A stretch of 64,000 nt of DNA from Deltaproteobacteria bacterium (GCA_032128115.1 JAQBHB010000036.1:5872-69871); one strand, 5' to 3'; numbered from the stretch's first letter, positions 5,057 through 56,093 are shown. Notes: generated by a model from the sequence alone, not told the origin. Made by a program: numbers and translations.

Positions 5057-5065
5057 GATGGTTCC

Positions 5066-32747: not shown

Positions 32748-32753
32748 GACGAC

Positions 32754-35761: not shown

Positions 35762-35807
35762 TCCGGTGTCCGACTCGCATCTCTCGACCCTCGCGCGCGA
35801 GTCGACG

Positions 35808-37382: not shown

Positions 37383-37566
37383 ATCGAAGTCTCGAACGAA
37401 ATGATGCGTTTTTCACTCAGTGTGGATCGAGCCCCACCGTTGAATTGGGCAACGGAAAAAGAATTCCCCTTTCTGGACAAACCGATTCCCTCAGAAGCTG
37501 CACCCGAGCTCGTCGCTCTCTTCTCAAGCTGTTGAAAACAAAGGATTTGTTGAATCCACCGGAGTG

Positions 37567-37582
37567 CGGCACGAGATTTGCT
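37567..37582 (+). promoter_or_regulatory. sigma-54 (RpoN) -24/-12 promoter candidate
   Basis: CGGCACGAGATTTGCT matches the consensus TGGCACG-N4-TTGCW at 15 of 16 positions, with correct GG/GC spacing. It lies 72 nt upstream of the PEP-CTERM gene start in a lower-GC 271-bp intergenic region. Palindrome AACAAAggaTTTGTT at 37537-37551. Confidence 0.65.
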
Positions 37583-37653
37583 TGACGAAGAAGTGCGATT
37601 TCTTGCGGGTGGCGCTGTTTCGCGCCCCGCGGGTCGTACTGGGAGGGGACCTC

Positions 37654-38319: not shown

Positions 38320-38346
38320 CGCGAACTCCAGGAGCGCCGGATTTCG

Positions 38347-38380
38347 AGGCGCAGCCCCACCGGGCTGCGCCTCTTTCTTT
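38347..38380 (+). terminator. rho-independent terminator
   Basis: 11-bp GC-rich stem AGGCGCAGCCC / GGGCTGCGCCT with loop CACC, followed by CTTTCTTT. Begins 28 nt after the PEP-CTERM stop. Confidence 0.8.
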
Positions 38381-38422
38381 GTGGGACCGGGCCGCAGATG
38401 CCTCCGGTAGACTGCAGCCGGT

Positions 38423-39847
38423 ATGGACGAGCTGGTCGAGCGTCTTCGCAGTGACCTGGGAGATCGGGTTCACACGGATCCCGAGACGCTGAATGCCCAC
38501 TGGCGCGACGCCTGGGTGCTTTCGGAGCTTGACGATCTGGAGGATCGTGCACCGGCGCGGCCCCGAGCGGTGGTCGTCGCGCAGAGCACCGCGGACGTCT
38601 CGCGCACCCTGGTCTTGTGCCGCGCGGCACGCGTCCCCGTCGTTCCGTTCGGAGGCGGCTCAGGAGTGTGCGGCGCCATCGTGGTTCCCGACGGGGCGGT
38701 GGTGCTGTCCACGGCCGGTCTCTCCGGTCTGCGCGAGATCGACGACCGCAATCTCACCGCCAGCTTCGGCGCCGGCACCAACGGCATGCAGGCCGAGCGG
38801 GCGGTCGAAGCCCACGGCCTCACCATCGGTCACTGGCCCCAGTCGATCGAAATCTCCACAGTAGGGGGTTGGGTGGCGACCCGTGCCTCGGGTCAGTTCT
38901 CCACCGGCTACGGCAACATCGAAGACATCCTGCTCGATCTCGAGGCCGTGCTCCCGGACGGAAGCGTGCTGCGCACGCGCCGCACGCCGCGGGCTTCTGC
39001 GGGCCCCGACCTGCGTCAGATCTTTCTGGGAAGCGAGGGCACGCTGGGGGTGGTGACCGAGGTGACCTTCTCGCTGCGCGCCCAGCCAGAGGCGCGCCAC
39101 GGTCAGGCCTTCCACTTCGCCGATCTCGAGAGTGGACTCGAGTCGATACGCCTGCTGATGCGCGTGGGCTGGCGGCCGCCGGTGGTGCGCCTCTACGACG
39201 CCGCCGAGTCCGGGCGTCACTTTGGCGATGATTGTCCTTCGGGCCGCGCCATGTTGATCCTGTTGCACGAAGGCCCCGCCGCCGGAGTGGAGGCCGAGCG
39301 CGAGGCGGTGGCGAAGCTCTGCAGCGAACGCGGTGGCGTCGGCGCGGACGCAGGCGTCGTGGATCACTGGATGCGCGAGCGCAATCACGTGCCGGGGTTC
39401 CGGGATTTCCTCGAGAAAGGCGTCGTTCTCGACACCATCGAAGTGGCCTGCACCTGGGATCGGGTGAGCGAGCTCTACCAGCGCGCCACGGATTCGCTGC
39501 GGCAGGTGCCGGGCATGCTGCTGGCCAGCGCCCACTCGAGCCACAGCTACCGGTCGGGGACCAACCTCTACATCACCTTCGTGGCCCGGCCGGAAAGCCC
39601 CGCCGGAATGCGCGACACCTATCGCCAGTGCTGGCGTCGCACCATGGAGGCCGTGCTGGCGGTGGGGGGTGGCATCGCCCACCACCACGGGATCGGCAGG
39701 GTGCGCAAGGACGTGTTGTCCGGCGAGATCGGGGCGGGAGGCGTGGCCCTGTTGCGCGCCCTGAAGGCAGCGCTCGACCCGGAGGGTCTGCTCAACCCCG
39801 GGGCCCTGCTGCCCGACGCGGGGACGAGCGAATCCGCGGTGCGCTAG
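38423..39847 (+). CDS. FAD-linked oxidase, alkyl-dihydroxyacetone-phosphate synthase (AGPS)-like
   Basis: 474 aa. FAD_binding_4 segment VVPFGGGSGVCGA. The block GHWPQSIEISTVGGWVATRASGQFSTGYGNIEDILL resembles the AGPS block (..STxGGWxSTRASGxxxxxYGNIEDL..) more than GlcD-type oxidases. This is by recollection, with no alignment run. Confidence 0.7.
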   Translation: MDELVERLRSDLGDRVHTDPETLNAHWRDAWVLSELDDLEDRAPARPRAVVVAQSTADVSRTLVLCRAARVPVVPFGGGSGVCGAIVVPDGAVVLSTAGLSGLREIDDRNLTASFGAGTNGMQAERAVEAHGLTIGHWPQSIEISTVGGWVATRASGQFSTGYGNIEDILLDLEAVLPDGSVLRTRRTPRASAGPDLRQIFLGSEGTLGVVTEVTFSLRAQPEARHGQAFHFADLESGLESIRLLMRVGWRPPVVRLYDAAESGRHFGDDCPSGRAMLILLHEGPAAGVEAEREAVAKLCSERGGVGADAGVVDHWMRERNHVPGFRDFLEKGVVLDTIEVACTWDRVSELYQRATDSLRQVPGMLLASAHSSHSYRSGTNLYITFVARPESPAGMRDTYRQCWRRTMEAVLAVGGGIAHHHGIGRVRKDVLSGEIGAGGVALLRALKAALDPEGLLNPGALLPDAGTSESAVR

Positions 39848-39901
39848 CATGGCCGGCCCTCCGGCCGCGTGGGCCGGAGAACCACCAGGCGAACGAGAGG
39901 C

Positions 39902-40987
39902 ATGGTCGATCCGAAGCGCGCGGGCGTGTCGGCGAAGGATTGGGAAGAGGCGACGGCCTCCTGCCACGAGCTTCGCGTGGCGAAGATCGTGGAGGAGACC
40001 CACGACGCCCGCTCCATCGTGCTCGCGGTGCCCGAGTCCCTGCGCGGGCGCTTCGCCTACAAGGCGGGGCAGTTCCTCAGCTTCAAGATCCCGTATCGGG
40101 GCGTGGTGCTGACGCGCAGCTATTCCCTGTGCAGTTCGCCCGAGTGCGATCCGGAGCACAAGATCGCCGTCAAGCGGGTCGACGACGGCAGGGTCTCCAA
40201 CTGGATGAACGACGAGCTTCGCGAGGACGACACCTTGATGGTGGTGCCGCCGGCGGGCTTCTTCGTGCTCGACGACGCGACCAACAAGCTGGTGCTCTTC
40301 AGCGGCGGCAGCGGCATCACGCCGTGCATCGCGTTGATCAAGACGGCACTCGTCACCACGCGTCGAGATCTCAAGCTGGTGTACGCCAACCGCGACGCCC
40401 GCTCGATCATCTTCCAGCAGGAGCTCGAGGCGTTGCGCGAAAAGCACGGAGATCGCTTCGAGATCGTGCACTCGCTCGACGACGTGGACGGGTTCCTGGA
40501 TCTGCACGCGGTCAAGCGCCACGTGGGCGATGACGTGGGTGCCGACTTCTACCTGTGCGGCCCGGGCCCCTTCATGGCGACGGTGGAGGCATCTCTCGAA
40601 GAGATGGGCGTGCACATGGACCGTATCCATGTGGAGCACTTCGCATCGCCCGCGGATCCCGGAGAGGCGGCAGAGGAAGCGGCGGCACCTGCCGCCGAGG
40701 GCGAGGTGGTGCCCGACTCGATCACGGTGGTGCTCGATGGGGTGACCCACCAGGTTCCCTACGAAGCGGGGGAGAAGGTGCTGCACGCGGTGCGGCGTGC
40801 GGGCCTCGAGCCCCCCTTCTCGTGCGAGGAGGGCTACTGCTCGTGCTGCATGGCGAAGCTCGTCGGCGGCCAGGTGCAGATGGCCACCAACGACTGCCTG
40901 ACCCCCGAGCTCCTGGAAGAGGGCTGGGTGCTCACCTGCCAGTCGCGCTGCGTGAGCGCCAGGATCCGGGTCGAATACCCGGACTGA
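39902..40987 (+). CDS. ferredoxin-NAD(P)+ reductase-type oxidoreductase with C-terminal plant-type 2Fe-2S domain (PaaE-like)
   Basis: Trimmed to ATG 39902. FAD-binding RSYSLCSSP, NAD-binding LVLFSGGSGITPCIAL, and a C-terminal cluster CEEGYCSCCMAKL..LTCQSRC. Confidence 0.85.
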   Translation: MVDPKRAGVSAKDWEEATASCHELRVAKIVEETHDARSIVLAVPESLRGRFAYKAGQFLSFKIPYRGVVLTRSYSLCSSPECDPEHKIAVKRVDDGRVSNWMNDELREDDTLMVVPPAGFFVLDDATNKLVLFSGGSGITPCIALIKTALVTTRRDLKLVYANRDARSIIFQQELEALREKHGDRFEIVHSLDDVDGFLDLHAVKRHVGDDVGADFYLCGPGPFMATVEASLEEMGVHMDRIHVEHFASPADPGEAAEEAAAPAAEGEVVPDSITVVLDGVTHQVPYEAGEKVLHAVRRAGLEPPFSCEEGYCSCCMAKLVGGQVQMATNDCLTPELLEEGWVLTCQSRCVSARIRVEYPD

Positions 40988-43388
40988 ACGCCGTCTGTGT
41001 GCCCCGCACCCGCGGCGCTGCGCCGAAGCGAACCAGCAGGGCCGGTGCCACCAGCACGTCGGCCAGGAACGCCGACACGATTGCGAAGCCCGTGAAGATC
41101 CCCATCTGCACCAGGTTCTGCATGGTGGCGAACGTGTACACGAGGAAGCCCGACGCCAGCACGATGGAAGTGAACAGCATGGCGCGCCCGGTGGTCTCCA
41201 GGCTGCGTTGCACGGCCAGGTGCGGGTCGCCGGTCATGGCGGAATAGCGCTGGAACTGGTGGGCGAAATGGATGGTGTCGTCGACGGCGATGGAGAGCAC
41301 CACGGCGCCGCTCATCATCGTGGAGAAGTCGATGGGGAACCCGAGCCATCCCATCAGACCCAGGGTCAGTGCAATCGGCGCCAGGTTCGGGATCATGCTG
41401 AGCAGGCCGCCTCGCAGGCTGCCCAGCACCAGGATCATGAGCGGTGTCACTACCAGGAGCGCGATGGCGTAGGAACTCGCCATGCTCCGGATCATCCCGG
41501 TGAACGTTCCCGCGTGGAGCGCCAGGGAGCCGGTCACGGTGATCCCCACATCGTCGCCGAGCAGCTGGCGGAACTTCTCCTCGATCTCGGCGATCACAGG
41601 CATGTGGTCGAAAGCGTCGGCATCGGTGACCCGCAGCGAGAAGCTCGCCAGCTGGAAGCGCGAGTCCACCACGTCTTCCAGGTCGTCGCTGCCCGTGTTC
41701 TCGAACAGCAGGAACTCCTGGGCCACCAGGCGGCGATCGTCGGGAATCGCGTAGAACGCCGGGCGGTTCTCGTTCAGGGCCTGGTGGATTTCCTGGAGCA
41801 CGTCGGCGGCCGACACGGTCTTGCCCACCGTGACGTGGTTGCGATCGATGGTTTCGCTCCACACCCGAAGCTCTTCGAGCCGGGCCAGCAGCGTAGGATC
41901 GTGAAGACCGTTATCCACCCGCGTGTCCAGCACGATCTCCAGGGGCGCGCTGCCGCCGAATCGCTCGTCGAGGATCTCGGCGGCGATGCGCACCGGCTCG
42001 TCTTCCGGCATCCAGGTGACCGGGTTGTGGGAGAACCGCAGCTGCCCGATGCCCGTGGCGCTCAGCACCATCAGGAGCGCCAGGCCCGCCAGGACGGCGC
42101 TGGGGCGGCGGGTGGCCAGGTTTCCCAGGGCCGCCAGCACGCCGTCGACCCGCGAGCGCGGCGCATGGATGGGCCGCCTGGAAAGCGGCGCCAGCGCCAG
42201 CCCCGCCGGCAGCAACACCACGGTGAACGCGAACGCGAAGATCACGCCCACGGGCCCGAAGATTCCGAAGTGCGCCACGGGCGCGAGACCTGCGTTGGCA
42301 AACGAGGCCAGGCCGCCGGCGGTGGTGAGGCTCGTCATGGCGATGGGCAGCCCCGAGTGACCCAGGGCGCCAGCGATGGCGTCGACCTTGTCTTCTCCTC
42401 GGGACAGGGCCCGGTAGAAGATCGTCAGCACGTGGATCGAATCGCCCACCCCCACCGCCAGCAGGAACGAAGGCAGCACCTGGATCGGCAGCGTGATGGG
42501 CACACCCGCCGCCGCCATGCTGGCGATGGTGCAGAGCAACGCGAGCAGCACCACGGCCAGGGGCAACAGCACTCCCGACAGCCGCCGGAAGAGTACGTAC
42601 AGAAGCAGCGTCATGATGCACACGGCGAGCGTCACGAACAGCGCGATGTCGCGCTGCATGGCCTTCATGAGCCGGGTCTCGATCATCGGGCCGCCTGTGG
42701 CGTGCAGACGGAAGTCCGGTCCATCGAAGCGTTCCATCACGCCCAGCGTGGCGTCGGCGATGGCGTAGGCCTCCTGCTCCGTGAGGAACGGGTGGCCCAC
42801 CTGCGCGCTCTCGTCGTCGAATCCGGACAGTTCCTCGACTCGCGCGCCGAGAGACGAATACGTGTCCGGTTCGACGAGCACGCTGGTGAGCCGCCCGTCC
42901 TCCGAGATCCAGAGATTCCGATAGAGCGGGTGCGCGAGCACGATCTCGCGGATGCGCGCCAGATCGGCGTCGTTGCGGGGCCAGTCCTCCAGCAGGTCGT
43001 CGACGATGAGCTCGTCTGCGACGCCGCGGGTGTAGCGGACGTTGATCAGGCTCGTGACCTCGTGCACCTGGGGGACGTCGCGCTCGAGCGCCCGGTGGAA
43101 CGCGCGCAGCTTCTCGAGGAACGCCAGGTTGAAGACATCCGGCGGCTCGACGGCGATGAAGATCGAGCCCTCGCGCTGGAACTGTGCGCGGAAGGCGTCG
43201 TAGTGGACGCGCGCCGGGTCGTCCGGGTGCAGAAAGGCCTGGTCGGAGCCGTCGATCGCGAGTTTCGGCAGCTGGCTTGCGAGGGCGACTACCGCCAGTC
43301 CCGTGACCGCCAGCGCTCGCAGGGGGTGCTGGGCCACGGCGCGTCCCCAACGCTCGAAGCCGTTCTCGATCTGCTGGCGGATCTCCAT
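40932..43388 (-). CDS. RND-superfamily permease of the COG1033 / MMPL / HpnN-like type (818 aa), paralog 1
   Basis: Two 6-TM bundles, each preceded by a large periplasmic loop. Paralogous to 48831..51236 along the full length (e.g. VTSLINVRYTRG vs VTSLVNARLTRG, LLFENTGSDDLEDVVDSRFQ vs LLFENSGSDDLEDLVDSRFQ). Confidence 0.85.
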   Translation of the reverse strand: MEIRQQIENGFERWGRAVAQHPLRALAVTGLAVVALASQLPKLAIDGSDQAFLHPDDPARVHYDAFRAQFQREGSIFIAVEPPDVFNLAFLEKLRAFHRALERDVPQVHEVTSLINVRYTRGVADELIVDDLLEDWPRNDADLARIREIVLAHPLYRNLWISEDGRLTSVLVEPDTYSSLGARVEELSGFDDESAQVGHPFLTEQEAYAIADATLGVMERFDGPDFRLHATGGPMIETRLMKAMQRDIALFVTLAVCIMTLLLYVLFRRLSGVLLPLAVVLLALLCTIASMAAAGVPITLPIQVLPSFLLAVGVGDSIHVLTIFYRALSRGEDKVDAIAGALGHSGLPIAMTSLTTAGGLASFANAGLAPVAHFGIFGPVGVIFAFAFTVVLLPAGLALAPLSRRPIHAPRSRVDGVLAALGNLATRRPSAVLAGLALLMVLSATGIGQLRFSHNPVTWMPEDEPVRIAAEILDERFGGSAPLEIVLDTRVDNGLHDPTLLARLEELRVWSETIDRNHVTVGKTVSAADVLQEIHQALNENRPAFYAIPDDRRLVAQEFLLFENTGSDDLEDVVDSRFQLASFSLRVTDADAFDHMPVIAEIEEKFRQLLGDDVGITVTGSLALHAGTFTGMIRSMASSYAIALLVVTPLMILVLGSLRGGLLSMIPNLAPIALTLGLMGWLGFPIDFSTMMSGAVVLSIAVDDTIHFAHQFQRYSAMTGDPHLAVQRSLETTGRAMLFTSIVLASGFLVYTFATMQNLVQMGIFTGFAIVSAFLADVLVAPALLVRFGAAPRVRGTQTAFSPGIRPGSWRSRSATGR

Positions 43389-43476
43389 GGCCGCAGCGTG
43401 GCGTTCGCAACGGAAGATGTCCTGATGAGAACCTGGGGGTTTCCTGGGGGTGTTGCTGTGTTCGAAGCTATTGAAA

Positions 43477-46400
43477 TTACTGGAGTTTTTCTGCCATCCG
43501 GGATGCGAGTTCGGGATATCGGCGGCCCGAGCGGGGCGCGTTCCGGATGCCGCATCGGCGCCAACCGGCGATCGCCTCGTCCATCAGCAGCCGGGCCCGC
43601 CTCGCATCGCCGGTGGCCCCGCGCCGGAGCAACATGTGGGCGTAGCTGGCCCGGGTCGAATGCGGAGCCAGGACCAGTCCCATGCCGGTCTCGCGCGCCA
43701 GGGCGCGCTCGAATTGTACTGCGGCCGCGTCGAAGCGTCCGAGTACCGTGTCGAGTCCCGCCAGCATCGTGCCCACGCTGGCCATGGGCACACGAAGAAG
43801 GTCGTGCACCATCACCAGGTCTGCGTAGGGCGCCAGCAGCTCGCGCAGCTGCTCCGCCCGGGCGCGGTCTTCCAGCACCATGGCCAGCCCGCCGAACGAT
43901 CCGATGGTCGGTAGCCAGTGCTCGTCGCGAGGAATGCTTGCAAATTCGTCCACCGCCAACTCGTCCAGTTCGCGCTGGGCTCGCGGGGTCTCGCCCTGTT
44001 CGGCCCACACCTGCGCCAGCGTCGCCCGGATTGCCGGTGCCCAGCTGTACGGCGATTCGATCATCTCGCCGAAGAAGATCGGGCTCTCTTCCACATCGTC
44101 GCGATCGCCCCGGGCCAGACGCACGAAGTACATCTGCCCGGCGTACACGAAGTTCGCGTAGTCCACGGTGCCGCGCCCGCGCTCGCGAGCCTCGCGGATC
44201 AGCGTCTCCGCCTCGTCGAAGTCTCCCATCGCCGCCGCGCGGCTGCCGCGCCACACACTTGCCTGCCACTCGAAGAGCGGCTGCCGCAGTTCACTGGCGA
44301 TCTGTGTGTAGGTGTCGAGCGCGTCGTAGGCGGCGGAGATCTCGCCCTGCAGCATGTGGGCACCCATCAAGACGTCGTGGCCGGCGGCGGCCAGGCTCTT
44401 GTCGTCGATCTCCTGCGCCAGATCGAACATCTCCGCCGCCAGGGTGCGCCGCTCCCCGATCCGGTCGGGCCCGAGACAGGCCCAGCGCGATGCCAACAGC
44501 ACATCGCGCAGGGCCTCGCGATCGCCGGTGTCGCGAGCCATGGCGCGTGCCTCGCGGCTGAGTTCCGCGCGGGTCGCCATGGAAAGCGAGTGGGGCGGTG
44601 TGCCGATGCGCCGGCCCAGGAGGCGGGCCCGCAGGGCCGGATGGTCGTCGCCGATGGCCAGGAGGGCCTCTTCCACCAGCGCCAGGATGTCGTCGGCCAC
44701 CGGGGCGCCCATCTCGCCGCCCCGGTAACCGAGTGCAGCTCGGGCGAGCAGGTCGGGTCGCGAGAGTGCGCGCGCGATCTCGGCGGCGGCGCGGTAGGCG
44801 TCGCGCGCCACCGGCGGGCCCGCAGCGGTGGCGTGGGCATCGCCGCATTCCAGTAGCAGCTCGCAGCGCCGGGTTTCGTCCCGGGGCACGCACAATTCGA
44901 GCGCGTGCACGGCTCGCCCGTACTGGCGCGCCGCCTCTTCGTACGCCAGCAGACGTTGGGCGCGTTCGGCCGCGCGGGTGCAATAGTGCACCGCCCGCTT
45001 CGGGTCGCCGCCCGCAGAGGCCAGGAAGAAGTGATGTGCCAGCTCCGCCAGGTGGGGCTCCGGATGGGCGCCACAGGCTTCCTCCAGCGCCTCGGCGGTT
45101 CGCAGGTGCAGGCGCACGCGCTCCGCGTTGTCGAGTTCGTCGTACAGGGTCTGTCGGATCAGGGCATGCCCGAAGACGTACACGCCCGGATTCTCGGGAG
45201 ACTCGGCCAGGACATGGGCCGAAACCGCCTCCCCCAGCGCGTCGAGCAGCCGATCGCGTTCCACCCCGGACACCCGGGAGAGCTGCCCGCTGGCGAAGTC
45301 CCGGCCCAGCACCGAAGCCACACGCAGGACGCGATTGCACTCGGACGAAAGCGAATCCAGCCGCCGGCCGATGGCGTCGCGCACGCTCTGGGGAAGAGCC
45401 AGGGGAGAAGAGCCCGCCTCGTCCCAGTTCTCAGCGGGGCCATCCGCCAGCAGCCGCACCACCTCCTGCACGAAGAACGGGTTGCCCTCGGTCATCTCAC
45501 ACACACTCGACAGCATGCGCGCCGATGGGGGCCGTCCGCCCACGCCTTCCACGAGCAGGGCAACGTCCCGGGCCGGGAGCCCGCGGAGTGCGATACGTTC
45601 GCACACGGGCTCGCGAGCCAGGGCCCCGAGCACGGTCGCCAGCGGGTTGCCCCGGTGCACCTCCACGTCGCGGTAGGCTCCGATCAACAGCACGGGCGCG
45701 TGGGCGATCTCACCGGTCGCGAACCGAAGCAGCTGCAGGGATGCATCGTCTGCCCAGTGCAGATCGTCCAGCATCAGGACAAGCGGCTTGCGTCGCGCCA
45801 GTGCCAGCAGGAAGCGCGTCACGCTCTCGAAGAGACGGAAGCGCGCCTGCTCGTTTCCCAGCGGGGGTGCTTCGGGTACGTCGCCCAGGCGTTCCCGGAG
45901 CTCGGGAGCCAGGTTTGCGATCTCGGCGACGCCGGGGCCCAGGTCGTGGGGCAACGTGGCCGCGTCGGCATCCTCGATGCAAGCGCGCAGCAACCGCACC
46001 CAGGGCCAGAAGGCGGGCGCGCCGCCGCCTTCGTGGCACCGGGCCGAATACACCAGGGCGCCGCGCCGGCGGGCCTGGGCGCCAAATTCCTGGGCGGTGC
46101 GCGTCTTGCCGATCCCGGGTTCACCCACCAGCAGCAGCAGGCGCCCGTGCCCCGAGAGGGCCGAGGCCAGGCCCGCCCGCAGGCTCTGGATGGCCGGGTC
46201 GCGCCCGACGAACGGAGTGTCGGCGGCGGGCGCGGGCAGGGGGACCAGGTCGCCGTCTGCCCGGGGGCCGCCGGGAGACCGCGCCACGGCAGCGGCGAAG
46301 CGGTAGCCGCGACCGTGCACCGTGGCGATCACCGCGCCCCGGCGATCGTCGCCCACGGCGCGTCGCACCGCGGCCACGCAGCTGGGGAGCACCGACTCGG

Positions 46401-46581
46401 ACACGGCGGCGCCCTGCCAGACGCCGTCCAGCAGCTCGGTCTTGGATACCACCCGTTCCCGGTGGTGCAGCAGGTGCAGCAGCACGTCGAAGGCTCGGGG
46501 TTCGAGCTTCACGACCTTCCCGCGTCGTCGAAGCTGGAACAGCTCCTCGTCGAGTTCGCAGTCGCGAAAGGCGTAGATCAC
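43477..46581 (-). CDS. large transcriptional regulator: N-terminal OmpR/PhoB-type winged-helix DNA-binding domain + P-loop NTPase + TPR-like repeats (1034 aa)
   Basis: wHTH VKLEPRAFDVLLHLLHHRERVVSKTELLDGVW..VHGRGYRF. Walker A LLLLVGEPGIGKTRTA and Walker B LVLMLDDLHWAD. Long helical-repeat C-terminus. No receiver domain. Confidence 0.85.
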   Translation of the reverse strand: MIYAFRDCELDEELFQLRRRGKVVKLEPRAFDVLLHLLHHRERVVSKTELLDGVWQGAAVSESVLPSCVAAVRRAVGDDRRGAVIATVHGRGYRFAAAVARSPGGPRADGDLVPLPAPAADTPFVGRDPAIQSLRAGLASALSGHGRLLLLVGEPGIGKTRTAQEFGAQARRRGALVYSARCHEGGGAPAFWPWVRLLRACIEDADAATLPHDLGPGVAEIANLAPELRERLGDVPEAPPLGNEQARFRLFESVTRFLLALARRKPLVLMLDDLHWADDASLQLLRFATGEIAHAPVLLIGAYRDVEVHRGNPLATVLGALAREPVCERIALRGLPARDVALLVEGVGGRPPSARMLSSVCEMTEGNPFFVQEVVRLLADGPAENWDEAGSSPLALPQSVRDAIGRRLDSLSSECNRVLRVASVLGRDFASGQLSRVSGVERDRLLDALGEAVSAHVLAESPENPGVYVFGHALIRQTLYDELDNAERVRLHLRTAEALEEACGAHPEPHLAELAHHFFLASAGGDPKRAVHYCTRAAERAQRLLAYEEAARQYGRAVHALELCVPRDETRRCELLLECGDAHATAAGPPVARDAYRAAAEIARALSRPDLLARAALGYRGGEMGAPVADDILALVEEALLAIGDDHPALRARLLGRRIGTPPHSLSMATRAELSREARAMARDTGDREALRDVLLASRWACLGPDRIGERRTLAAEMFDLAQEIDDKSLAAAGHDVLMGAHMLQGEISAAYDALDTYTQIASELRQPLFEWQASVWRGSRAAAMGDFDEAETLIREARERGRGTVDYANFVYAGQMYFVRLARGDRDDVEESPIFFGEMIESPYSWAPAIRATLAQVWAEQGETPRAQRELDELAVDEFASIPRDEHWLPTIGSFGGLAMVLEDRARAEQLRELLAPYADLVMVHDLLRVPMASVGTMLAGLDTVLGRFDAAAVQFERALARETGMGLVLAPHSTRASYAHMLLRRGATGDARRARLLMDEAIAGWRRCGIRNAPRSGRRYPELASRMAEKLQ

Positions 46582-46611
46582 CCGCGCAGGGTATCACGCG
46601 CGAGCCGCGCC

Positions 46612-48015
46612 CTAGAAGCTGTAGCGGATCTCGAAGAAGATGCGGTCGTTGCGGGCGATGTTCTGGAACGTGGCCAGGCTTCCCTTCTGGTAGAAGACGA
46701 TGCCGCCCGCCAGCTCGAGTGCATCGCGAAGATCGTAGCTGGCGTCGAGCCGGACGACGCTGCCGTCATTGGCGGTGGGCCCCAGGATCAGCCCCAACAG
46801 GGTCATCTGCAGACGATCGTTCAGGAAATTTGCGGTGATCCGCGCCGCCGTCTCCATCGAATTCTTCTGCTGCCCGTCGGGGAACGCCTTCAACGCGCTG
46901 TCGAAATCGTTGATGTGTCGGTTTGCGATCTCCAGGGAAAAGTTCCAGTCGTTGATGCCGTAGTACTCGACGCCCGCCATGAAGTCGGTGCGCGACTTTT
47001 CGTCGCTGACGTTGAAATAGTCGTAACCGTCGATCCAGGCCAGCTCGCTCTTGAACAGCCAGCTTCCCAGGGTGTAGTTGCCGCCGCCGCCCACCAGAAG
47101 CAGGCGGTCGTGGTTGAGCTGGGTTCCTGACGGATCCAGGAACGCGATGTCCTCGTAGTACGACGCCAGGTTGAGCGAGACGTCCCAGCCCTGGAAGACG
47201 CCGTTCGCGGCGAGGCCGTACTCCGGGCTGCTGGGTTTTCGCTGGGCGGGACTCGAAGCGGGGGCCGGAAAGAAGTCGTTTCCGAAAACCGGCTGGATGC
47301 TGAAGCGGATTTCCGGGATCACCAGGCCGGTGATGCTCCAGGGGCCGATGTAATAATCGCCCCGGATCATCGCCACCCCGAGCTTCAGATCCTCGATGTC
47401 GGCCAGGCCCGGCTCCCGGTTGTCCAGCGGGTTGATCACGTCGAGTACGCGCAGGGAGTCGGAGCGGCCCCAGTTCACGATCTGGCGCCCGATCTTGATG
47501 TCGAAGTCTTTGTGGAGGCTTCCGGCCAGGTAGGCCTCCTGCAGTTGGACATCCCACTCGTAGTTGTTCAAGACCTGCCGGGTGTAGTTCCGGTCGTTGA
47601 TGATGTACATGAAGTCGTAGAACGCGTAGCCATCGACGCGAATGCGCCAGTCGGCCGGTAGATTGCCGTCCAGTTCGAGGCCGAGCTTCGTGCGCAGCTT
47701 GGAGAGCCCGCCGTAAGGAGCCCCGTTGGGGGCGGGACCGGTGGACCGGTGGCTCAGATAGTTGACGGAAGTGCTGAGCAGGAGATCCCCGCCCATGTCC
47801 CACCAGCTCCAGAACGAGCCGTCCTCGATCTCCTCCAGAAGAGATTCGTTGGGCTCGCCGGACTCCTCGTCCCCGTCTTCGAAGCCGCCGAGCAGATCAT
47901 CCAGGTCGCCTCCGACCTCATCGGCGCGCACCGGGGCCGCCGTGACTGCACACGCGGCCGCCAGGGCCGCTGCGAGCAGTCGGACGGGGGCGCGCATCCT
48001 CGAACCGCGCACCAC
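46612..48015 (-). CDS. outer-membrane beta-barrel protein (DUF1302-like / porin-like), 467 aa
   Basis: Signal peptide ..RLLAAALAAACAVTAAPVRA, an acidic linker, then alternating amphipathic strand pattern. The C-terminal ..FFEIRYSF has a terminal Phe typical of BAM substrates. The family name is tentative, and the start could be Met 47997. Confidence 0.65.
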   Translation of the reverse strand: MVRGSRMRAPVRLLAAALAAACAVTAAPVRADEVGGDLDDLLGGFEDGDEESGEPNESLLEEIEDGSFWSWWDMGGDLLLSTSVNYLSHRSTGPAPNGAPYGGLSKLRTKLGLELDGNLPADWRIRVDGYAFYDFMYIINDRNYTRQVLNNYEWDVQLQEAYLAGSLHKDFDIKIGRQIVNWGRSDSLRVLDVINPLDNREPGLADIEDLKLGVAMIRGDYYIGPWSITGLVIPEIRFSIQPVFGNDFFPAPASSPAQRKPSSPEYGLAANGVFQGWDVSLNLASYYEDIAFLDPSGTQLNHDRLLLVGGGGNYTLGSWLFKSELAWIDGYDYFNVSDEKSRTDFMAGVEYYGINDWNFSLEIANRHINDFDSALKAFPDGQQKNSMETAARITANFLNDRLQMTLLGLILGPTANDGSVVRLDASYDLRDALELAGGIVFYQKGSLATFQNIARNDRIFFEIRYSF

Positions 48016-48030
48016 TGTTCGTCTCCCGGG

Positions 48031-48834
48031 TCAAAGCCCTTTTTCGAGTTGTCGAATCGTGAACTGGCTCTCCGCCAGGTCCTGGTTGAAGCGAACATTA
48101 TCGGCCTTGATCACGGTCTTGTGCAGGGTGGCCTTGCCCTTCTTGGTGGTCATCTCCATCTCGGTGGGGACCCAGATACCGTCGATCTTCTCCAGCTTCT
48201 TCACATCCAGATACTTCTCGCGATTGCCCTTCTTCACCCAGTTCTTGGATCGGACGACCACGTCGTTGTCCTGGCGCACGAAGAAGATCGACTTGGTGTA
48301 GCCGGTTTCGTCGATCTCCTTCTCCGTATTGGGGATCGCTTCCACGATCCAGATCTTGTGGCCATCCAGCTCGGTCTCTTTGATCAGGCGGTAATCGTAG
48401 CGGTCGAGCTCACGGGAGGTCATGTCGGCGTAGGTGAAGTCCGAGCCCATGAAGCTGCCGCTCTTGTCGCTACTGGCGATTCGTTTGGTCTTCTTCAGGG
48501 CGGGCAGATACAGCCACTGGTCGTCGTCCGCGTCCGCGTCGTCGTAATCGAATGTGAGGAATCCGGTGTCCTTCACGTCAGCGGGCGACTGGAAGAACAT
48601 GATCGTCTCGGTGTCTTCTCCCTTGTCGCGGCGATAGGAGCGGATTTCGCGTTCGCGGCGACTGCCGTTCTTGTCGATCAGCGTCATCGCCATGTCCTGG
48701 ATGGCGTTGTCGCCGTCATCGCGGGCGTCCACGCGCTCCATGATCTCACGTCCCGTGGGTTCCGCGGCGGCGGGAGCCGAAAGCAGCAGGGCCAGGGCGC
48801 TCGACAGGATCGCAACGAGGGTGTGCCGTCTCAT
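48031..48834 (-). CDS. LolA-like 'outer membrane lipoprotein-sorting' fold protein (periplasmic, 267 aa)
   Basis: Tail of track ORF 48031..49869 from ATG 48834 (ATGA overlap with the RND stop). Signal peptide MRRHTLVAILSSALALLLSAPAAA. Blocks IMERVDARDDGDN, MFFQSPADVKDTGFL, QWLYLPALKKTKRIASSDKSGSFMGSDFTYADM are typical of the LolA_like family that accompanies COG1033 RND genes. Confidence 0.82.
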   Translation of the reverse strand: MRRHTLVAILSSALALLLSAPAAAEPTGREIMERVDARDDGDNAIQDMAMTLIDKNGSRREREIRSYRRDKGEDTETIMFFQSPADVKDTGFLTFDYDDADADDDQWLYLPALKKTKRIASSDKSGSFMGSDFTYADMTSRELDRYDYRLIKETELDGHKIWIVEAIPNTEKEIDETGYTKSIFFVRQDNDVVVRSKNWVKKGNREKYLDVKKLEKIDGIWVPTEMEMTTKKGKATLHKTVIKADNVRFNQDLAESQFTIRQLEKGL

Positions 48835-51236
48835 CCGGTGGTCTCCGTACTCATGTGGGAAAGGGGTCGCGGGCGCGCAACCAGGGTGATCAGCGCCGGC
48901 GACAGCAGCACGTCGGCGAGGAAGGCGATGACGATGGTGAAGGCCGTCAGCAGGCCGAACTGCAGCAGGATTCTCATGGAGGCGAAGGCGTAGACCAGGA
49001 AGCCCGTGGAGAGCACCAGGCTCGTGAAGAGCAGGGCCTGACCGGTGGACGAGAGGGTTTCTCGCACTGCGCTTCGAATATCTCCGCTGCGCTCGTAGTA
49101 GCGCCTGAAATTGTGCATGAAGTGGATCGTGTCGTCCACGGCGAGGCCGATGGCGATGCTCCCGATCAGGAGCGTGAAGGCGTCCAGGGGCAGTCCGAAC
49201 CAACCCATCAGCCCGATCGTCACCAGGATGGGCGCCAGGTTCGGAACCATGCTCAACAACCCGATCCGCAGGTTTCCGATCAGGAGGATCATGAGCGGCG
49301 TGATGATCAGGAAGGCCAGGACGTAGGTCTTGGCCATGCTGTACATCACGGCCTTGATGGTGCGACCCAGGATGCTCATGATTCCGGTGGCGGTGACCTG
49401 GTAGCTGTCGGGCAGGATCTGGCTGTACCCCGCCTGGAGCAGATCGATGAAGTCGCCGTAGTCGATGGCGTCGACGAAGGGCAATTTGATGGTGAACCGG
49501 GCCACCTGGAAGCGCGAGTCCACCAGGTCTTCCAGATCGTCGGACCCGCTGTTTTCGAAGAGCAGCAGCTCCTGGGCCACCAGCAGGCGATCGTCGGGAA
49601 TGGCGTAGAAGTCGCTCCGGTTCTCGTTCAGGGCCTGGTGGATCTCCTTGACCACGTCGGCCACGGAGACGGTCTTGCCCACGTGCACCTTGTTCAGCCG
49701 CGCGTCTTCGGAGAAGCGACGCATCTCGTCCAGGCGATTCAGGGCCGCGGGCTCGTGCAGTCCGTTCTCGACGCCCGTATCCACCAGGATCTCCAGGAAC
49801 ATGGATCCCGCAAGGCGGTCGTTGATGACGTCGCTGGAGACCCGGAAGTAGTCGTCCCGCGGAAACCACTCGAGCGGTGCGTGGGAGAAACGCAACTGGG
49901 CCGCGCCCACGGCACAGAAGGCCAGGATGCAGGCGCTTACCAGCACCACGGCTCCCGGGTGTTGCGTGGCGAAGTCGCCCGCGCGCACCAGCCAGCGCTG
50001 GGTCACCTGGGGCGCCGGGTCGGCCGTCCGGGCCGCCCCCATGGGCACCACCGAGATCAGGGCGGGCAGCAGCACCACCGTCATCAGGAGCGACATCATC
50101 ACGCCCACCGGGGCGAAGATCCCGAACTCGGCGATGGGACCCAGCTCGGCGCTCGCGAAGGAGATCAGGCCCCCGGCCGTGGTGAGACTCGTCATCACGA
50201 TGGGGAGCCCCGAGTGGCCCAGGGCCCCGGCGATGGCCTCCTTCTTGGCGTGTCCGGCGCGCCGGCGCTGATAGAAGATCACCAGTACGTGCACGGCGTT
50301 TCCGACACCCACGGCCAGCAGGAACGAGGGCAGGATCTGGGTCGGGAGCGCCAGTTCCACACCGGCGGCCGCCATGATCGAGAGGGTCGAGAGCAGAGAC
50401 AAGATCACGATCAAGAGCGGCAGGGCGACGGCCGCTGGGCGGCGGAACAACAGGAAGAGCAGGGCGCCGATGGCGACGATGGCCAGCAACGTGAAACGGG
50501 ACATGTCGCGCCGCATGGAGTTCTGAAGGGCGTCGGTGAGAACCGGGGCCCCGGCCATGTGGATGCGGAAATCCGGCGCGTCGTAGCGCTTCACCACCGC
50601 GTTGATGGCGGTGACGATTTCGTGGTTCTCCGCGCCGGTGATGAACGGGAGGGGTGCGGCGTCTGCATCGTCGTCGAACCCGGCCAGGTCGTCATCCACG
50701 CCGATCGAGGTGTAGGCGTCGGTCTCGATGGTGAAGGTCGTGATGCGGCCATCTTTCGAGAGGAGCAGGTTCGTGTACAGGGGATTCGAGAGGGCGCGCA
50801 GTTTCGCCGTGGCCAGCTGCTCGGGGGTCTCGGGCCACTCCTCGAGGAGATCGCCCACGATCAGCTCGTTCTCCTCGCCGCGGGTGAGCCGCGCGTTGAC
50901 GAGGCTGGTCACCTCCACGAGCTTGGGAACCTGGTTCTCGATGTCGCTGTGCATCGCGCGCAGCTTCTCGAGGAACACCAGGTCGAAGATCTCCGGCGTC
51001 TCTACCGACAGCAGGATGGCGTCGTCGCGACCGAACTGCTGGCGGAAGGCGTCGTAGGTGAGGCGCACCGGGTCGTCTTCCTTCAGGAAGCCCTCCGTCG
51101 AGGTATCGATCGCGATCTTCGGAAGCTGGGTGAGCAAGCCGGCCACGACGATCAGAACGATTCCGATGGTCTGCCAGGCGTGTTCGTACGCGAAACGCCC
51201 CCAGCGCGAGAGTTCGCTCTCGAAACGTTCCCTCAC
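48831..51236 (-). CDS. RND-superfamily permease of the COG1033 / MMPL / HpnN-like type (801 aa), paralog 2
   Basis: Same architecture as 40932..43388. Its start overlaps the TetR stop by 4 nt. Confidence 0.85.
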   Translation of the reverse strand: MRERFESELSRWGRFAYEHAWQTIGIVLIVVAGLLTQLPKIAIDTSTEGFLKEDDPVRLTYDAFRQQFGRDDAILLSVETPEIFDLVFLEKLRAMHSDIENQVPKLVEVTSLVNARLTRGEENELIVGDLLEEWPETPEQLATAKLRALSNPLYTNLLLSKDGRITTFTIETDAYTSIGVDDDLAGFDDDADAAPLPFITGAENHEIVTAINAVVKRYDAPDFRIHMAGAPVLTDALQNSMRRDMSRFTLLAIVAIGALLFLLFRRPAAVALPLLIVILSLLSTLSIMAAAGVELALPTQILPSFLLAVGVGNAVHVLVIFYQRRRAGHAKKEAIAGALGHSGLPIVMTSLTTAGGLISFASAELGPIAEFGIFAPVGVMMSLLMTVVLLPALISVVPMGAARTADPAPQVTQRWLVRAGDFATQHPGAVVLVSACILAFCAVGAAQLRFSHAPLEWFPRDDYFRVSSDVINDRLAGSMFLEILVDTGVENGLHEPAALNRLDEMRRFSEDARLNKVHVGKTVSVADVVKEIHQALNENRSDFYAIPDDRLLVAQELLLFENSGSDDLEDLVDSRFQVARFTIKLPFVDAIDYGDFIDLLQAGYSQILPDSYQVTATGIMSILGRTIKAVMYSMAKTYVLAFLIITPLMILLIGNLRIGLLSMVPNLAPILVTIGLMGWFGLPLDAFTLLIGSIAIGLAVDDTIHFMHNFRRYYERSGDIRSAVRETLSSTGQALLFTSLVLSTGFLVYAFASMRILLQFGLLTAFTIVIAFLADVLLSPALITLVARPRPLSHMSTETTG

Positions 51237-51919
51237 GCTTCCGCTCCCCTGCGAGCGCGCGGTTCAGTGATCCCGTGCAGCACGAGCTCGGAAACAGCAC
51301 GGGTGAATTCTTCGATGTGCTCGGGCGTGATCTCGCGCAGGTCGAACATGCGGCGAACCACCGGGGCTGCCAGGAAGAACCACAGGCACATCCCGGCCAG
51401 TGCGGGCACGAAGTACATGGGGTCGACGCGCCGGAACTCGCCCGCCTCGAAGCCGTCATGCAGTACGGCCTGGATGGCCGCCAGATTCGGGCGTCCGAAC
51501 TGCTCGACGAATCCCTCGATCACGTCGTCCTCGGCGAACAGGATCTGCTCGGCCGCCAGGCGTGGGAAGTAGGGGTCATCCTTGAAGCCGGCGATCCAGC
51601 TCTCGATCAGGCCCTGCACGCGTTCTCCGGCACTTCCGCCGCCGCGGCTGGCCTGCTGGATGCGTTCGATCCCCTCGCTGGCGACCTCCAGTATCACGGC
51701 GCGCAGCAGCCCCTGCTTGCCGCCGAAGTAGTAGTTCACCAGTGCGGGCATCACCCCGGCCCGCTCGGCCACCTCGCGCGCGGTGACGAGCGGGTAGCCC
51801 TTTTCCGCCATCAAGAACCGGGCCGCCTGCAGCAGGGCGCGGCGCCCCTCACCCGTTCGGGAACCGGCGGGCCGCCCGGGTCCGCGACGTTCGGGAGATT
51901 CGGTGCCAGAGCGAGGCAT
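51233..51919 (-). CDS. TetR/AcrR-family transcriptional regulator
   Basis: 228 aa. HTH AARFLMAEKGYPLVTAREVAERAGVMPALVNYYFGGKQGLL. First gene of the RND operon. Confidence 0.88.
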   Translation of the reverse strand: MPRSGTESPERRGPGRPAGSRTGEGRRALLQAARFLMAEKGYPLVTAREVAERAGVMPALVNYYFGGKQGLLRAVILEVASEGIERIQQASRGGGSAGERVQGLIESWIAGFKDDPYFPRLAAEQILFAEDDVIEGFVEQFGRPNLAAIQAVLHDGFEAGEFRRVDPMYFVPALAGMCLWFFLAAPVVRRMFDLREITPEHIEEFTRAVSELVLHGITEPRARRGAEA

Positions 51920-51960
51920 TAAATTTATTGTATGTTCATTTATTAATTACAACAAGAGAA
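51920..51960. promoter_or_regulatory. AT-rich divergent promoter/operator region
   Basis: TAAATTTATTGTATGTTCATTTATTAATTACAACAAGAGAA is almost devoid of G/C in an otherwise high-GC window. Direct repeat ATTTATT (51923-51929, 51938-51944). Inverted repeat TTGTA (51928-32) / TACAA (51948-52). Abuts the TetR start codon. Confidence 0.55.
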
Positions 51961-53468: not shown

Positions 53469-53837
53469 CTAGCTCGCCTGCTTCGTGAACATCGCCATGT
53501 CGAAGTAATCACGCCAGGCGGTGATCTGGCCCTCGGAGTTCACCTCGAAGGCGCCCATCACCGGAAGCTCTACCGGCTTGCCGTTCAGCACGAAGCGATC
53601 CAATCGCTCCGTGTAGACGGTGTTTCCGCTGCTGGCGATTCCGCGCAGTTCGAACTCCGCCTCGCTCGCTGGCGACAGGAACTGACCCAGAATGGCCCGA
53701 ATCGCGTCGTGGCCCACGACCGGGGCAATCGGAATGTTGTGGTAGACCGCGTCGCTGCTGAAGAAGCCCAGCAACTCCTCCAGGTCACGCCGCGGAATGG
53801 CCGTGCAGAAATCTCGAACGACTTTTTCGGGTTCCAT
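53469..53837 (-). CDS. SnoaL/NTF2-fold protein, limonene-1,2-epoxide-hydrolase-like
   Basis: 122 aa. Pattern VRDFCTAI..DLEELLGFFSSDAVYHNIP..G.DAIRA..F and the C-terminal ITAWRDYFD. Confidence 0.72.
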   Translation of the reverse strand: MEPEKVVRDFCTAIPRRDLEELLGFFSSDAVYHNIPIAPVVGHDAIRAILGQFLSPASEAEFELRGIASSGNTVYTERLDRFVLNGKPVELPVMGAFEVNSEGQITAWRDYFDMAMFTKQAS

Positions 53838-53848: not shown

Positions 53849-53888
53849 ATCAGGAAGCGGCGCGGACCATCAGGAAGCGGCGCGGACG
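53849..53888. repeat. 20-bp tandem duplication (ATCAGGAAGCGGCGCGGAC C/G) spanning the stop codon of the DUF330 lipoprotein gene
   Basis: Read directly and confirmed through the track translation (..SLSGSGADHQEAARTR..). Copy 1 is 53849-53868 and copy 2 is 53869-53888, with 19 of 20 bases identical. Copy 2 holds the last five codons (VRAAS) plus TGA of the gene ending at 53870. Confidence 0.9.
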
Positions 53889-56092: not shown

Positions 56093-56093
56093 G

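Follow-up and report, generated by a model that had tools for sequence, protein, structure and literature searches.

The core of the six-gene array described here, an RND permease, a LolA-like carrier and an outer-membrane beta-barrel, probably forms a three-component transporter that moves a hydrophobic or amphiphilic molecule across the envelope, most likely outwards. The array lies in a 64 kb stretch of deltaproteobacterial DNA, the whole of which was analysed and is referred to as the window. A first-pass annotation had read it as a shuttle rather than a tripartite pump, and this reading holds up, with a conserved module, gene fusions, co-evolution of the components, and no membrane fusion protein (MFP) or TolC encoded in the 64 kb.

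Components of the six-gene array

All six minus-strand ORFs of the proposed array are present where the first-pass annotation had placed them, in the order TetR, RND1, LolA-like, barrel, regulator and RND2 (Table 1). The core genes are tightly spaced, and both overlaps previously claimed are seen in the sequence: the TetR stop and RND1 start overlap by 4 nt, and the RND1/LolA-like junction is a 4-nt ATGA overlap that can be read directly. The LolA-like and barrel genes are separated by 15 nt containing a GGGAGA ribosome-binding site, and the 3' end of RND2 overlaps a convergent reductase gene by 56 nt.

Table 1. Features of the array, with positions counted from the first letter of the window.
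Feature	Coordinates	Strand	Remarks
TetR	51233..51919	-	First gene of the array; TetR_N E 2e-13, TetR_C_9 E 4e-11
Candidate promoter/operator, AT-rich block	51920..51955	.	Abuts TetR ATG on 5' side
RND1, 801 aa, MmpL/HAE3-type permease	48831..51236	-	MMPL E 3e-38
LolA-like carrier, 267 aa	48031..48834	-	PF17131 E 4e-58
DUF1302-family outer-membrane beta-barrel, 467 aa	46612..48015	-	DUF1302 E 7e-24
wHTH + AAA_16 regulator, 1034 aa	43477..46581	-	Trans_reg_C E 2e-15, AAA_16 E 9e-30
RND2, 818 aa, RND1 paralogue	40932..43388	-	51% identity to RND1

RND1 belongs to the RND superfamily, in its MmpL/HAE3-like branch. Pfam reports two MMPL stretches, with matches in both halves of the protein (131.9 bits against a cut-off of 20.5), together with a sterol-sensing/Patched match (E 2e-18). 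The AF2 model (pLDDT 85.8, pTM 0.80) has 12 transmembrane (TM) helices in two 6-TM halves, with a periplasmic domain ahead of each (loops of ~195 and ~170 aa), and its best Foldseek matches are MmpL4/5/3, NPC1L1, NPC1 and HpnN (TMq 0.66-0.76); the best 50 include neither an AcrB nor a MexB chain. RND1 (E 9e-59, 199 bits) and RND2 (206 bits) both match the HAE3 model TIGR00921 below its curated cut-off of 351.9, and RND1 scores 115 bits against the HpnN equivalog TIGR03480, far below its cut-off of 752; we therefore describe the permeases as HAE3-like and not as HpnN orthologues. The closest solved folds, MmpL3/4/5 and HpnN, are only ~14-17% identical to RND1; these are PMF-driven exporters of lipids or siderophores with small periplasmic domains and no TolC. 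The partners of MmpL4/5 are MmpS4/5, which are not LolA-fold proteins, and we know of no dedicated outer-membrane barrel for MmpL3/4/5 or HpnN.

The LolA-like protein is a full-length member of PF17131 (LolA_like/TP_0789-like; 196.7 bits against a cut-off of 30, profile positions 2-184 of 184), as the first-pass annotation had supposed; this family has 5101 cluster representatives at E <= 1e-3. Structural homologues include PDB 9TP6 (Porphyromonas gingivalis LolA3; E 5e-56), 4Z48 and 3BK5, from which a LolA-type open beta-barrel fold is predicted. The N-terminus has a Sec signal without a lipobox cysteine, and the protein is thus predicted to be soluble in the periplasm. It also matches DUF1329 (PF07044) with 44 bits against a cut-off of 23.1, but only over profile positions 126-226 of 368, so that this 267-aa protein is DUF1329-related rather than a full-length member. 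Canonical LolA has LolCDE and LolB as partners and a conserved arginine on its beta2-beta3 loop; no LolCDE or LolB genes adjoin the LolA-like gene here.

The barrel, whose family had been left for profile assignment, belongs to DUF1302 (PF06980; 85.2 bits against a cut-off of 23.2). It has a signal peptide, an AF2 model with 18 long strands (pLDDT 83.5, pTM 0.77), and, as previously described, a C-terminus reading FEIRYSF that ends in an aromatic residue. Foldseek matches are OccAB3, MOMP, AlgE and OpdK (TM ~0.5), and this Occ/AlgE-like fold agrees with that published for DUF1302 (PMC13499233). A disordered acidic extension at the N-terminus carries a conserved LDDxLGGFED motif (A1 consensus).

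Conservation, fusions and co-evolution of the core

The arrangement is not due to chance: other assemblies contain the full six-gene array, and the three-gene core is found across phyla. Among 22 genome loci, from Myxococcota and from MAGs labelled Spirochaetales, Thermodesulfobacteriota, Reinekea, Saccharospirillum and Steroidobacteraceae, at least 18 have the barrel gene next after the LolA-like gene, and 19 have an adjacent RND gene. Cultured strains with the operon are Reinekea sp. G2M2-21, Saccharospirillum salsuginis KCTC 22169 and T. oleivorans MIL-1. The flanking genes are otherwise unrelated, with no Pfam family in more than three of 110 neighbouring ORFs (18 loci, top 25 families listed). 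Fusions joining the LolA-like domain to the RND C-terminus are represented by seven full-length and three truncated MMPL+LolA_like proteins at 50% clustering (at least ten independent), and P0277 is one more RND-LolA-like fusion.

Mirror-tree correlation is highest between the LolA-like protein and the barrel (r = 0.95), and ~0.63 for the RND with each of them (Mantel p ~5e-4). Against the three-part reading, the LolA-like and barrel pair is found without a neighbouring RND gene at three loci (L001, L030 and L031), and one locus (L034) has an RND gene without the other two. Two RND clades share only ~28% identity and are partnered by carriers that are nearly equally similar, suggesting that specificity is looser between RND and carrier than between carrier and barrel. 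Conserved order, recurrent fusions and co-evolution link the three genes functionally.

Proposed transport route, related systems and alternatives

In the route that we favour, a PMF-driven MmpL/HAE3-type permease in the inner membrane would load the soluble LolA-fold carrier, whose closest solved homologue, P. gingivalis LolA3, has a hydrophobic groove (PMC13103446); the carrier would traverse the periplasm and dock on the dedicated DUF1302 barrel of ~18 strands, which would release the cargo into the outer membrane or through it. We infer the physical hand-off, its direction, the cargo, the energy coupling and the targets of both regulators. Two further observations weigh against the route: deletion of lolA3 in Flavobacterium johnsoniae has no phenotype under the assays used (PMC11885536), and RND1 falls below the curated HAE3 cut-off. 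This outward cycle parallels LolCDE to LolA to LolB transfer and the MmpL pumps with their periplasmic accessory proteins. LolCDE-LolA-LolB and MlaFEDB-MlaC-MlaA/OmpC follow the same logic, in which an engine in the inner membrane works with a soluble periplasmic carrier that has a hydrophobic pocket and with an acceptor in the outer membrane, which in Mla sits on a porin. The Lol and Mla engines, however, are ABC transporters rather than RNDs, and their cargos are lipoproteins or phospholipids.

The shuttle concept is not new. A barrel, a LolA-superfamily carrier and an HAE3 RND acting without MFP or TolC have been proposed for AmeABCD (PMC6394551), by Price et al. (10.1101/072470) and by Foldy (PMC10866462), and the cluster here is a shorter, three-gene and widespread variant of this AmeABCD, or DUF1302-DUF1329-COG4447-COG1033, class. 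AmeABCD of Castellaniella defragrans likewise combines a DUF1302 barrel and a LolA-superfamily periplasmic protein with an HAE3-type RND and lacks MFP and TolC, and the class, which is tied to hydrophobic substrates (monoterpenes, fatty esters), also includes Shewanella amazonensis Sama_1588-1591 and Pseudomonas putida PP_0765/0766 with PP_2018/2019. The differences are that the carrier is a 267-aa PF17131 type rather than a ~450-aa DUF1329 type (AmeB/PP_0766), the barrel has 467 rather than ~600 aa, the order is RND-carrier-barrel, this lineage also has RND2 and the wHTH-AAA_16 regulator, and there is no gene for the COG4447/Ycf48-like beta-propeller. Because COG4447/BNR was not found in the window or in the Pfam-annotated or surveyed neighbourhoods of related loci, and the carrier is of the PF17131 type, we regard the cluster as a variant of the four-gene cassette and not as a member. 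In a sister system, AlphaFold co-folding predicts contacts of the carrier with both the barrel and the RND (PMC10866462; PMC13499233, ipTM 0.84). Thalassolituus oleivorans TOL_3187/TOL_3188, likened to the same set by its published description, has the same RND, LolA-like and adjoining barrel content, but with RND and carrier in one polypeptide; its source paper reads it as a porin-export chaperone (PMC6304351).

An inward route for water-insoluble growth substrates, with the barrel admitting them, the LolA-like protein ferrying them and the RND inserting them into the inner membrane, is a possibility that we consider unlikely, though it has several observations on its side. RND1 has NPC1 and NPC1L1 among its best structural matches (TMq 0.73-0.76), and the route would parallel NPC2 passing cholesterol to NPC1. 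In NPC2-NPC1 and Dispatched-Scube, an RND with a sterol-sensing domain, a signature that RND1 shares, trades lipid with a soluble carrier, but these systems are eukaryotic, with extra luminal domains, unrelated carrier folds and no barrel. Many lipid-catabolic genes also lie in the window, for PimC/D-like acyl-CoA dehydrogenases, an SCP-x-type thiolase, an acyl-CoA ligase, a Liu/Atu-like carboxylase, an LEH-family protein and a Mla/Mce-type ABC system. Against it, every characterised bacterial RND to our knowledge works outwards, and a local TetR/MarR repressor is a typical, though not an exclusive, feature of efflux operons. TOL_3187 is induced 42-fold on n-C28, which is non-toxic, together with the adjacent porin gene TOL_3188 (PMC6304351), and mutants show that P. 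putida needs its DUF1302/DUF1329/BNR/RND genes to grow on Tween 20 and butyl stearate, though not on free fatty acids (10.1101/2020.07.04.188060); the n-C28 induction and the fatty-ester requirement suit uptake no less well than export. Deletion of AmeABCD, in contrast, reduces monoterpene tolerance and increases Nile Red accumulation, an efflux phenotype (PMC6394551). More tentatively still, the module could be a bacterial counterpart of NPC2-NPC1 powering import of long alkanes, terpenoids and fatty esters through its RND; if so, it would be the first inward-working bacterial RND that we are aware of. In this reading the two paralogous permeases, one without the TM4 Asp, might form a heteromer or serve as alternative entry and exit gates on one carrier and barrel.

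Lipoprotein sorting, with the LolA-like protein carrying lipoproteins while the RND replaces LolCDE and the barrel replaces LolB, is suggested by the LolA fold, by the legacy name of the homologues ('outer membrane lipoprotein-sorting protein'), and by a putative lipoprotein gene (ORF11_beta) that lies divergently upstream in the window and in L025-L028 and L033. We judge it very improbable. The RNDs nearest in fold transport lipids, siderophores or sterols. In P. gingivalis LolA3 the LolA arginine and the LolB leucine are missing; this protein binds LolB weakly at most, and LolA3-type proteins, unlike those of the Lol system, are not paired with LolB (PMC13103446). In F. johnsoniae, a quintuple lolA/lolB mutant is viable with a surface lipoprotein reporter still localised (PMC11885536).

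A tripartite RND efflux pump with its MFP and TolC-type channel encoded elsewhere, and the LolA-like and barrel genes as mere neighbours, can be set aside as most improbable: the weak ACR_tran match of RND1 covers the C-terminal TM bundle alone (E 3e-11) and some sources call the homologues 'efflux RND transporter permease subunit', but fusions and co-evolution bind the neighbouring genes to the RND, its periplasmic loops fall well short of the ~300 aa each and AcrB-like fold of HAE1 pumps, and the reported lack of MFP and TolC genes is borne out, with no HlyD/MFP, OEP/TolC or BNR/COG4447 in a Pfam scan of every sizeable ORF of the 64 kb, no recurrent MFP or outer-membrane factor (OMF) among the top 25 families listed for the 110 neighbours at 18 loci, and none in L023-L034 according to precomputed Pfam annotation. 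The lack of MFP/OMF and the MmpL/NPC1/HpnN-like RND model together argue that this is not an AcrAB-TolC-type pump.

The second permease and the regulatory genes

RND2 is 51% identical to RND1 across 792 aa, which bears out a similarity previously noted by eye. Of the putative proton-relay sites, the TM10 motif AVDDTIH, present in RND1, is kept in nearly all of 21 RNDs compared, whereas TM4 has Asp in the RND2 lineage and Asn or Ala in the RND1 lineage; RND2 retains Asp in both TM4 (GVGDSIH) and TM10. RND2 branches apart from RND1, and orthologues of it occur in L025 (73%) and L032. The splitting of two permeases by a regulator gene is real, but calling it unusual overstates the case, as the permease is also duplicated, independently, in L005.

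The regulator is STAND-like, with an N-terminal OmpR/PhoB-type wHTH, an AAA_16 P-loop NTPase with Walker A and B motifs (GEPGIGKT and LMLDDLHWAD), and a long C-terminal region. The wHTH and P-loop are as first described, but the putative TPR part has no Pfam match at E <= 0.01, and the NCBIfam match is to the AAA_16/helical region alone of a TOMM kinase/cyclase fusion model. Orthologues occupy the equivalent slot in L025-L028 (65% identity) and L032. The regulator and RND2 co-occur only in close relatives of the window (L023-L028, L032); tblastn detected neither in the 22 genome loci, and both are absent from L033 and L034; the pair is an add-on confined to one lineage. Together they may supply a second permease for the shared carrier and barrel. 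The earlier proposal that the system is controlled at two levels is based on adjacency; the regulator and RND2 are limited to these relatives.

The co-transcribed TetR, with both its N-terminal HTH and C-terminal TetR_C_9 domains, probably acts on the AT-rich block upstream of its gene, as a local repressor that a ligand releases. This block (TTAATAAwTGAACATACAATAAAT) has a -10-like TACAAT 7 nt ahead of the TetR ATG, and ~30 nt of it are near-invariant between the window and L025/L026, with diverged intergenic flanks; it went unflagged in a scan for consensus promoters, and we consider it a candidate promoter/operator. The TetR-RND order is also present in L025-L028, L034 and the Reinekea loci L013 and L014, and in L011 a MarR gene takes the position of TetR.

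Gene content of the permease cluster

ORF coordinates and domain matches confirm the six minus-strand ORFs that the first-pass annotation had placed in this region, and the genes are listed below with other features of the window. TetR and RND1 overlap by 4 nt as judged from ORF coordinates; the sequence itself shows an ATGA overlap between RND1 and the LolA-like carrier gene, and a gap of 15 nt containing a GGGAGA ribosome-binding site ahead of the barrel gene. Within the cluster, GC content is lowest in the carrier gene (0.59, with the other five genes at 0.63-0.71), which is attributable to a K/D/E-rich composition and not to foreign origin, because its GC3 (0.84) is within the range of the other genes (0.83-0.90).

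Features of the window, with coordinates and domain content
Feature	Coordinates	Strand	Content
TetR	51233-51919	minus	TetR_N + TetR_C_9 domains
RND1, 801 aa	48831-51236	minus	two MMPL stretches + sterol-sensing/Patched matches
LolA-like carrier, 267 aa	48031-48834	minus	full-length PF17131 LolA_like (E 4e-58); partial DUF1329 match
Barrel, 467 aa	46612-48015	minus	DUF1302 (E 7e-24)
Regulator, 1034 aa		minus	Trans_reg_C + AAA_16
RND2, 818 aa	40932-43388	minus	two MMPL stretches + sterol-sensing/Patched matches
Putative lipoprotein, 156 aa	51976-52446	plus	signal ending ...LVGLAC; PF27154 ORF11_beta in precomputed tables
Signal-peptide protein, 110 aa	52507-52839	plus	
Mla/Mce-type lipid ABC transport operon	53850-56912	minus	
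MlaE permease (same operon)	56094-56912	minus	
ABC ATPase (same operon)	55265-56092	minus	
MlaD-domain protein (same operon)	54478-55272	minus	
211-aa ORF (same operon)		minus	no Pfam match
Enzyme and PEP-CTERM genes	35033-40987	plus	SDR, GlpD-like FAD dehydrogenase, PEP-CTERM protein, GlcD-like FAD oxidase, PaaE-like FAD/NAD/2Fe-2S reductase
Lipid or terpenoid catabolism genes	61495-63926, 53469-53837, 30006-34882	minus	
Lipid or terpenoid catabolism genes	16348-17907	plus	
Sulfatase ORF, 947 aa	6717-9560	plus	sulfatase + LamG (concanavalin-like) + EF-hand/TSP3 calcium-binding motifs
Cytochrome c oxidase operon	2404-7238	minus	

HMM searches assign the barrel to DUF1302 and the carrier to PF17131 LolA_like. 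The two permeases, which had been judged by eye to be alike over their whole lengths, are 51% identical over 792 residues; in NCBIfam both are nearest to the HAE3 subfamily model yet fall below its cut-off, and the HpnN models are far out of reach. The wHTH and P-loop assignments of the large regulator hold, but the TPR label given to its C-terminus is not confirmed. Essentially every sizeable ORF of the 64 kb was scanned with Pfam and no HlyD-type membrane-fusion protein (MFP), OEP/TolC or BNR/COG4447 propeller was identified, in agreement with the earlier reading that MFP and TolC are missing. The only Rfam matches in the window are two tRNAs, both distant from the cluster.

A conserved module of permease, carrier and barrel

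A genome scan using one genome per species yielded 22 loci, in Myxococcota and in MAGs labelled Spirochaetales, Thermodesulfobacteriota, Reinekea, Saccharospirillum, Steroidobacteraceae and others. A barrel homologue directly follows the LolA-like gene in at least 18 of these and an RND gene is adjacent in 19, with the module genes mostly separated by 0-15 nt or overlapping; the LolA-like/barrel pair can also stand without an RND beside it, for example in L001, L030 and L031. A small-molecule repressor recurs immediately upstream, TetR in the window and in Reinekea, and MarR in one other locus (L011). Among 110 flanking ORFs at 18 loci no Pfam family is common to more than three loci, and MFP and OMF families are absent from the recurrent ones listed. 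Environmental bacteria and metagenomes very commonly contain the three-gene PF17131 variant, and a carrier search of 1.84 billion cluster representatives (50% identity) returned 5101 relatives at E <= 1e-3.

Several lines of evidence indicate that the three proteins act together. Ten longer proteins among the best 150 of the 5101 carrier relatives were tested, and all are MMPL + LolA_like fusions, seven of them full-length (1033-1078 aa) and three truncated. One of these (P0365) shares 43% identity with RND1 over 802 aa. In P0277, a 60%-identical fusion, the signal peptide of the carrier continues from the RND C-terminus, an arrangement that is topologically sound because this C-terminus is cytoplasmic. 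Pairwise-identity matrices from 13 loci correlate for carrier and barrel (r = 0.95), and at r ~0.63 each for RND against carrier and RND against barrel (Mantel p ~5e-4). The RND partners form at least two clades with mutual identity of only ~28%, and the carriers beside both clades are 62-69% identical to that of the window, and the barrels 44-51%; carrier and barrel thus form the more tightly linked unit, and the RND partners have been exchanged. The carrier is much better conserved than its partners, at 62-69% identity where the barrel has 44-51% and the RND 28-48%.

At two related loci (L016, 5281-10747, and L017) the order is RND, LolA-like, barrel and second LolA-like, with one barrel between two carrier paralogues.

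Predicted folds and direction of transport

The RND1 model is confident (pLDDT 85.8, pTM 0.80) and matches MmpL4, MmpL5, MmpL3, NPC1L1, NPC1, HpnN, Patched and Dispatched (TMq 0.59-0.76), with no AcrB-type chain among its best 50 matches. Both permeases retain the TM10 AVDDTIH motif. In TM4, an Asp is retained in RND2 and its orthologues (residues ~309-319; GVGDSIH or GVCDAIH), and Asn or Ala takes its place in RND1 and the RND1 orthologues (residues ~306-316; GVGNAVH or GVGASVH); proton coupling may be different in the two permeases, or they may act jointly. The reading of RND1 as a partner inactivated by the Asp-to-Asn change was abandoned, the TM4 position being variable across the whole family.

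The barrel model is likewise confident (pLDDT 83.5, pTM 0.77), with 18 long strands. A sequence search of the PDB gave no match and fold comparison alone gave relatives, the best being 18-strand Occ/OprD channels, MOMP and AlgE at TM ~0.5; a 2026 description of DUF1302 is in accord, and gives neither a solved structure nor a biochemical function for the family (PMC13499233). Residues ~19-60 form a periplasmic N-terminal extension that is disordered and strongly acidic. An alignment of 44 homologues shows a conserved LDDxLGGFED motif in this extension, with G38 and F39 nearly invariant, and the extension is a candidate peptide for docking of the carrier or the RND. The closest solved relative of the carrier is Porphyromonas gingivalis LolA3 (9TP6, E 5e-56). 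In LolA3 a hydrophobic groove is present, the signature residues of LolA and of LolB are missing, and LolB binding is only weak (PMC13103446). A Flavobacterium johnsoniae mutant deleted for lolA3 was without phenotype in the assays applied (PMC11885536).

The trans-envelope shuttle first proposed for this cluster has support from synteny, gene fusions, co-evolution and fold class, and the model with the best support is an envelope transporter in which a carrier mediates the passage of a hydrophobic molecule. An MmpL-like RND driven by the PMF, with its conserved TM10 motif, would exchange the molecule with the soluble LolA-fold carrier, which would shuttle it to or from the dedicated DUF1302 barrel.

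Outward transport is favoured, because the characterised bacterial RNDs all work outward, to our knowledge, and because AmeABCD, a four-gene sister system of Castellaniella defragrans (DUF1302, DUF1329, COG4447 propeller and HAE3 RND), behaves as an exporter. Its mutant has decreased monoterpene tolerance and increased Nile Red accumulation (PMC6394551). A serious rival is inward transport in the manner of NPC2-NPC1, which is supported by three observations: Pseudomonas putida homologues are required on Tween 20 and butyl stearate and not on free fatty acids (10.1101/2020.07.04.188060), a Thalassolituus oleivorans MMPL + LolA-like fusion and its porin (TOL_3187 and TOL_3188) are induced on n-C28 (PMC6304351), and lipid-catabolic genes are abundant in the window.

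The system is less novel than first implied, as a barrel combined with a LolA-superfamily periplasmic protein and an HAE3 RND, in the absence of MFP and TolC, is a concept already published. AmeABCD has this composition (PMC6394551), DUF1302/DUF1329/BNR/COG1033 clusters cofit (10.1101/072470), and an AlphaFold-based two-complex shuttle model has been described for P. putida PP_0765/0766 with PP_2018/2019 (PMC10866462). The four-gene cassette shares the barrel, that of the window being a true DUF1302 member, but the system described here has no COG4447 propeller, and has a short PF17131 carrier in place of a full-length DUF1329 protein; it therefore lies outside the cassette, as a variant of the published class. 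In the literature searched, the three-gene PF17131 variant appears only as a T. oleivorans proteomics observation and as 'LolA3' outside its genomic context. Little is understood of the way in which a hydrophobic molecule passes through the aqueous periplasm when no MFP/TolC duct is present, a question that bears on the breakdown of hydrocarbons and terpenes, on tolerance to solvents and on lipid traffic in the envelope. The mechanism of the class is unsolved, and its compact variant makes a good point of entry, though no surprise to a specialist; natural RND-carrier fusions and cultured hosts, with Reinekea, Saccharospirillum and Thalassolituus as candidates, give structural and genetic handles on direction and cargo.

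Lineage-specific genes and genomic neighborhood

The LolA-like protein is also encoded on NCBI MAG GCA_032128315.1 (contig JAQBGX010000051; L023), where the neighboring genes of the window are retained, and named relatives are Myxococcota or 'Deltaproteobacteria' MAGs. The whole TetR-RND-LolA-like-DUF1302-regulator-RND array is found again in four JGI metagenome contigs (L025-L028), with proteins 65-86% identical, and without TetR in a further close relative (L032). The more distant L033 has only RND-LolA-like-DUF1302, and L034 only TetR-RND; since the regulator and second RND are confined to close relatives, they are an add-on of one lineage, outside the general system. Control at two levels, as first suggested, is not established, the role of the wHTH-AAA_16 regulator being drawn from adjacency alone. 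Nor is the duplicated permease established as unusual: another locus (L005, 707-12222) has two full-length RNDs, 52% mutually identical, around one carrier-barrel pair, with a third, partial RND at the contig edge. These are separated by HupE/UreJ and DUF3604 genes and not by a regulator, and the duplication is independent of that in the window.

An AT-rich block of ~30 nt abuts the TetR ATG and is conserved in two of the close relatives (L025 and L026), where the surrounding DNA has diverged; TetR probably autoregulates through it. Conservation was more informative here than a search of the upstream region for inverted and direct repeats, which gave only a 9-nt palindrome, and a scan for consensus promoters and terminators across 40.5-53 kb gave nothing above shuffled background. 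Two genes coding for exported proteins, the ORF11_beta lipoprotein and the 110-aa protein, diverge from the TetR promoter region. An ORF11_beta homologue is in the same position in L025-L028 and L033, and the protein may belong to the system as an accessory component or may just use the same operator.

Just upstream of the cluster is the Mla/Mce-type operon; in its place, L025-L028 have AtuA, an ORF without annotation and a gene with a STAS domain, which lie between the genes for the carboxylase and the limonene-epoxide-hydrolase-family (LEH) protein. The wider context is one of lipid or terpenoid catabolism, and includes a Liu/Atu-like pair of a biotin carboxylase with a BT_MCC_alpha domain and a carboxyltransferase (with AtuA next in L025-L028), an LEH protein, a PimC/PimD-like acyl-CoA dehydrogenase pair, an SCP-x-type 'lipid-transfer protein' thiolase and an acyl-CoA ligase. 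On the other side, the PaaE-like reductase gene is convergent with RND2, overlapping its 3' end by 56 nt. The enzyme genes of this group, and not the PEP-CTERM gene, accompany the LolA-like/DUF1302 module in L025-L028 and L030, and the reductase gene recurs in L032 and L033 too; the enzymes could be cargo-related. Reading the GlpD-like, GlcD-like and SDR genes as an ether-lipid (AGPS) pathway that names the cargo is unsupported, the NCBIfam GlcD and GlpD matches being sub-threshold. The 947-aa sulfatase ORF adjoins the cytochrome c oxidase operon, and sulfatases are also present beside the LolA-like/DUF1302 pair at two related loci (L029 and L031).
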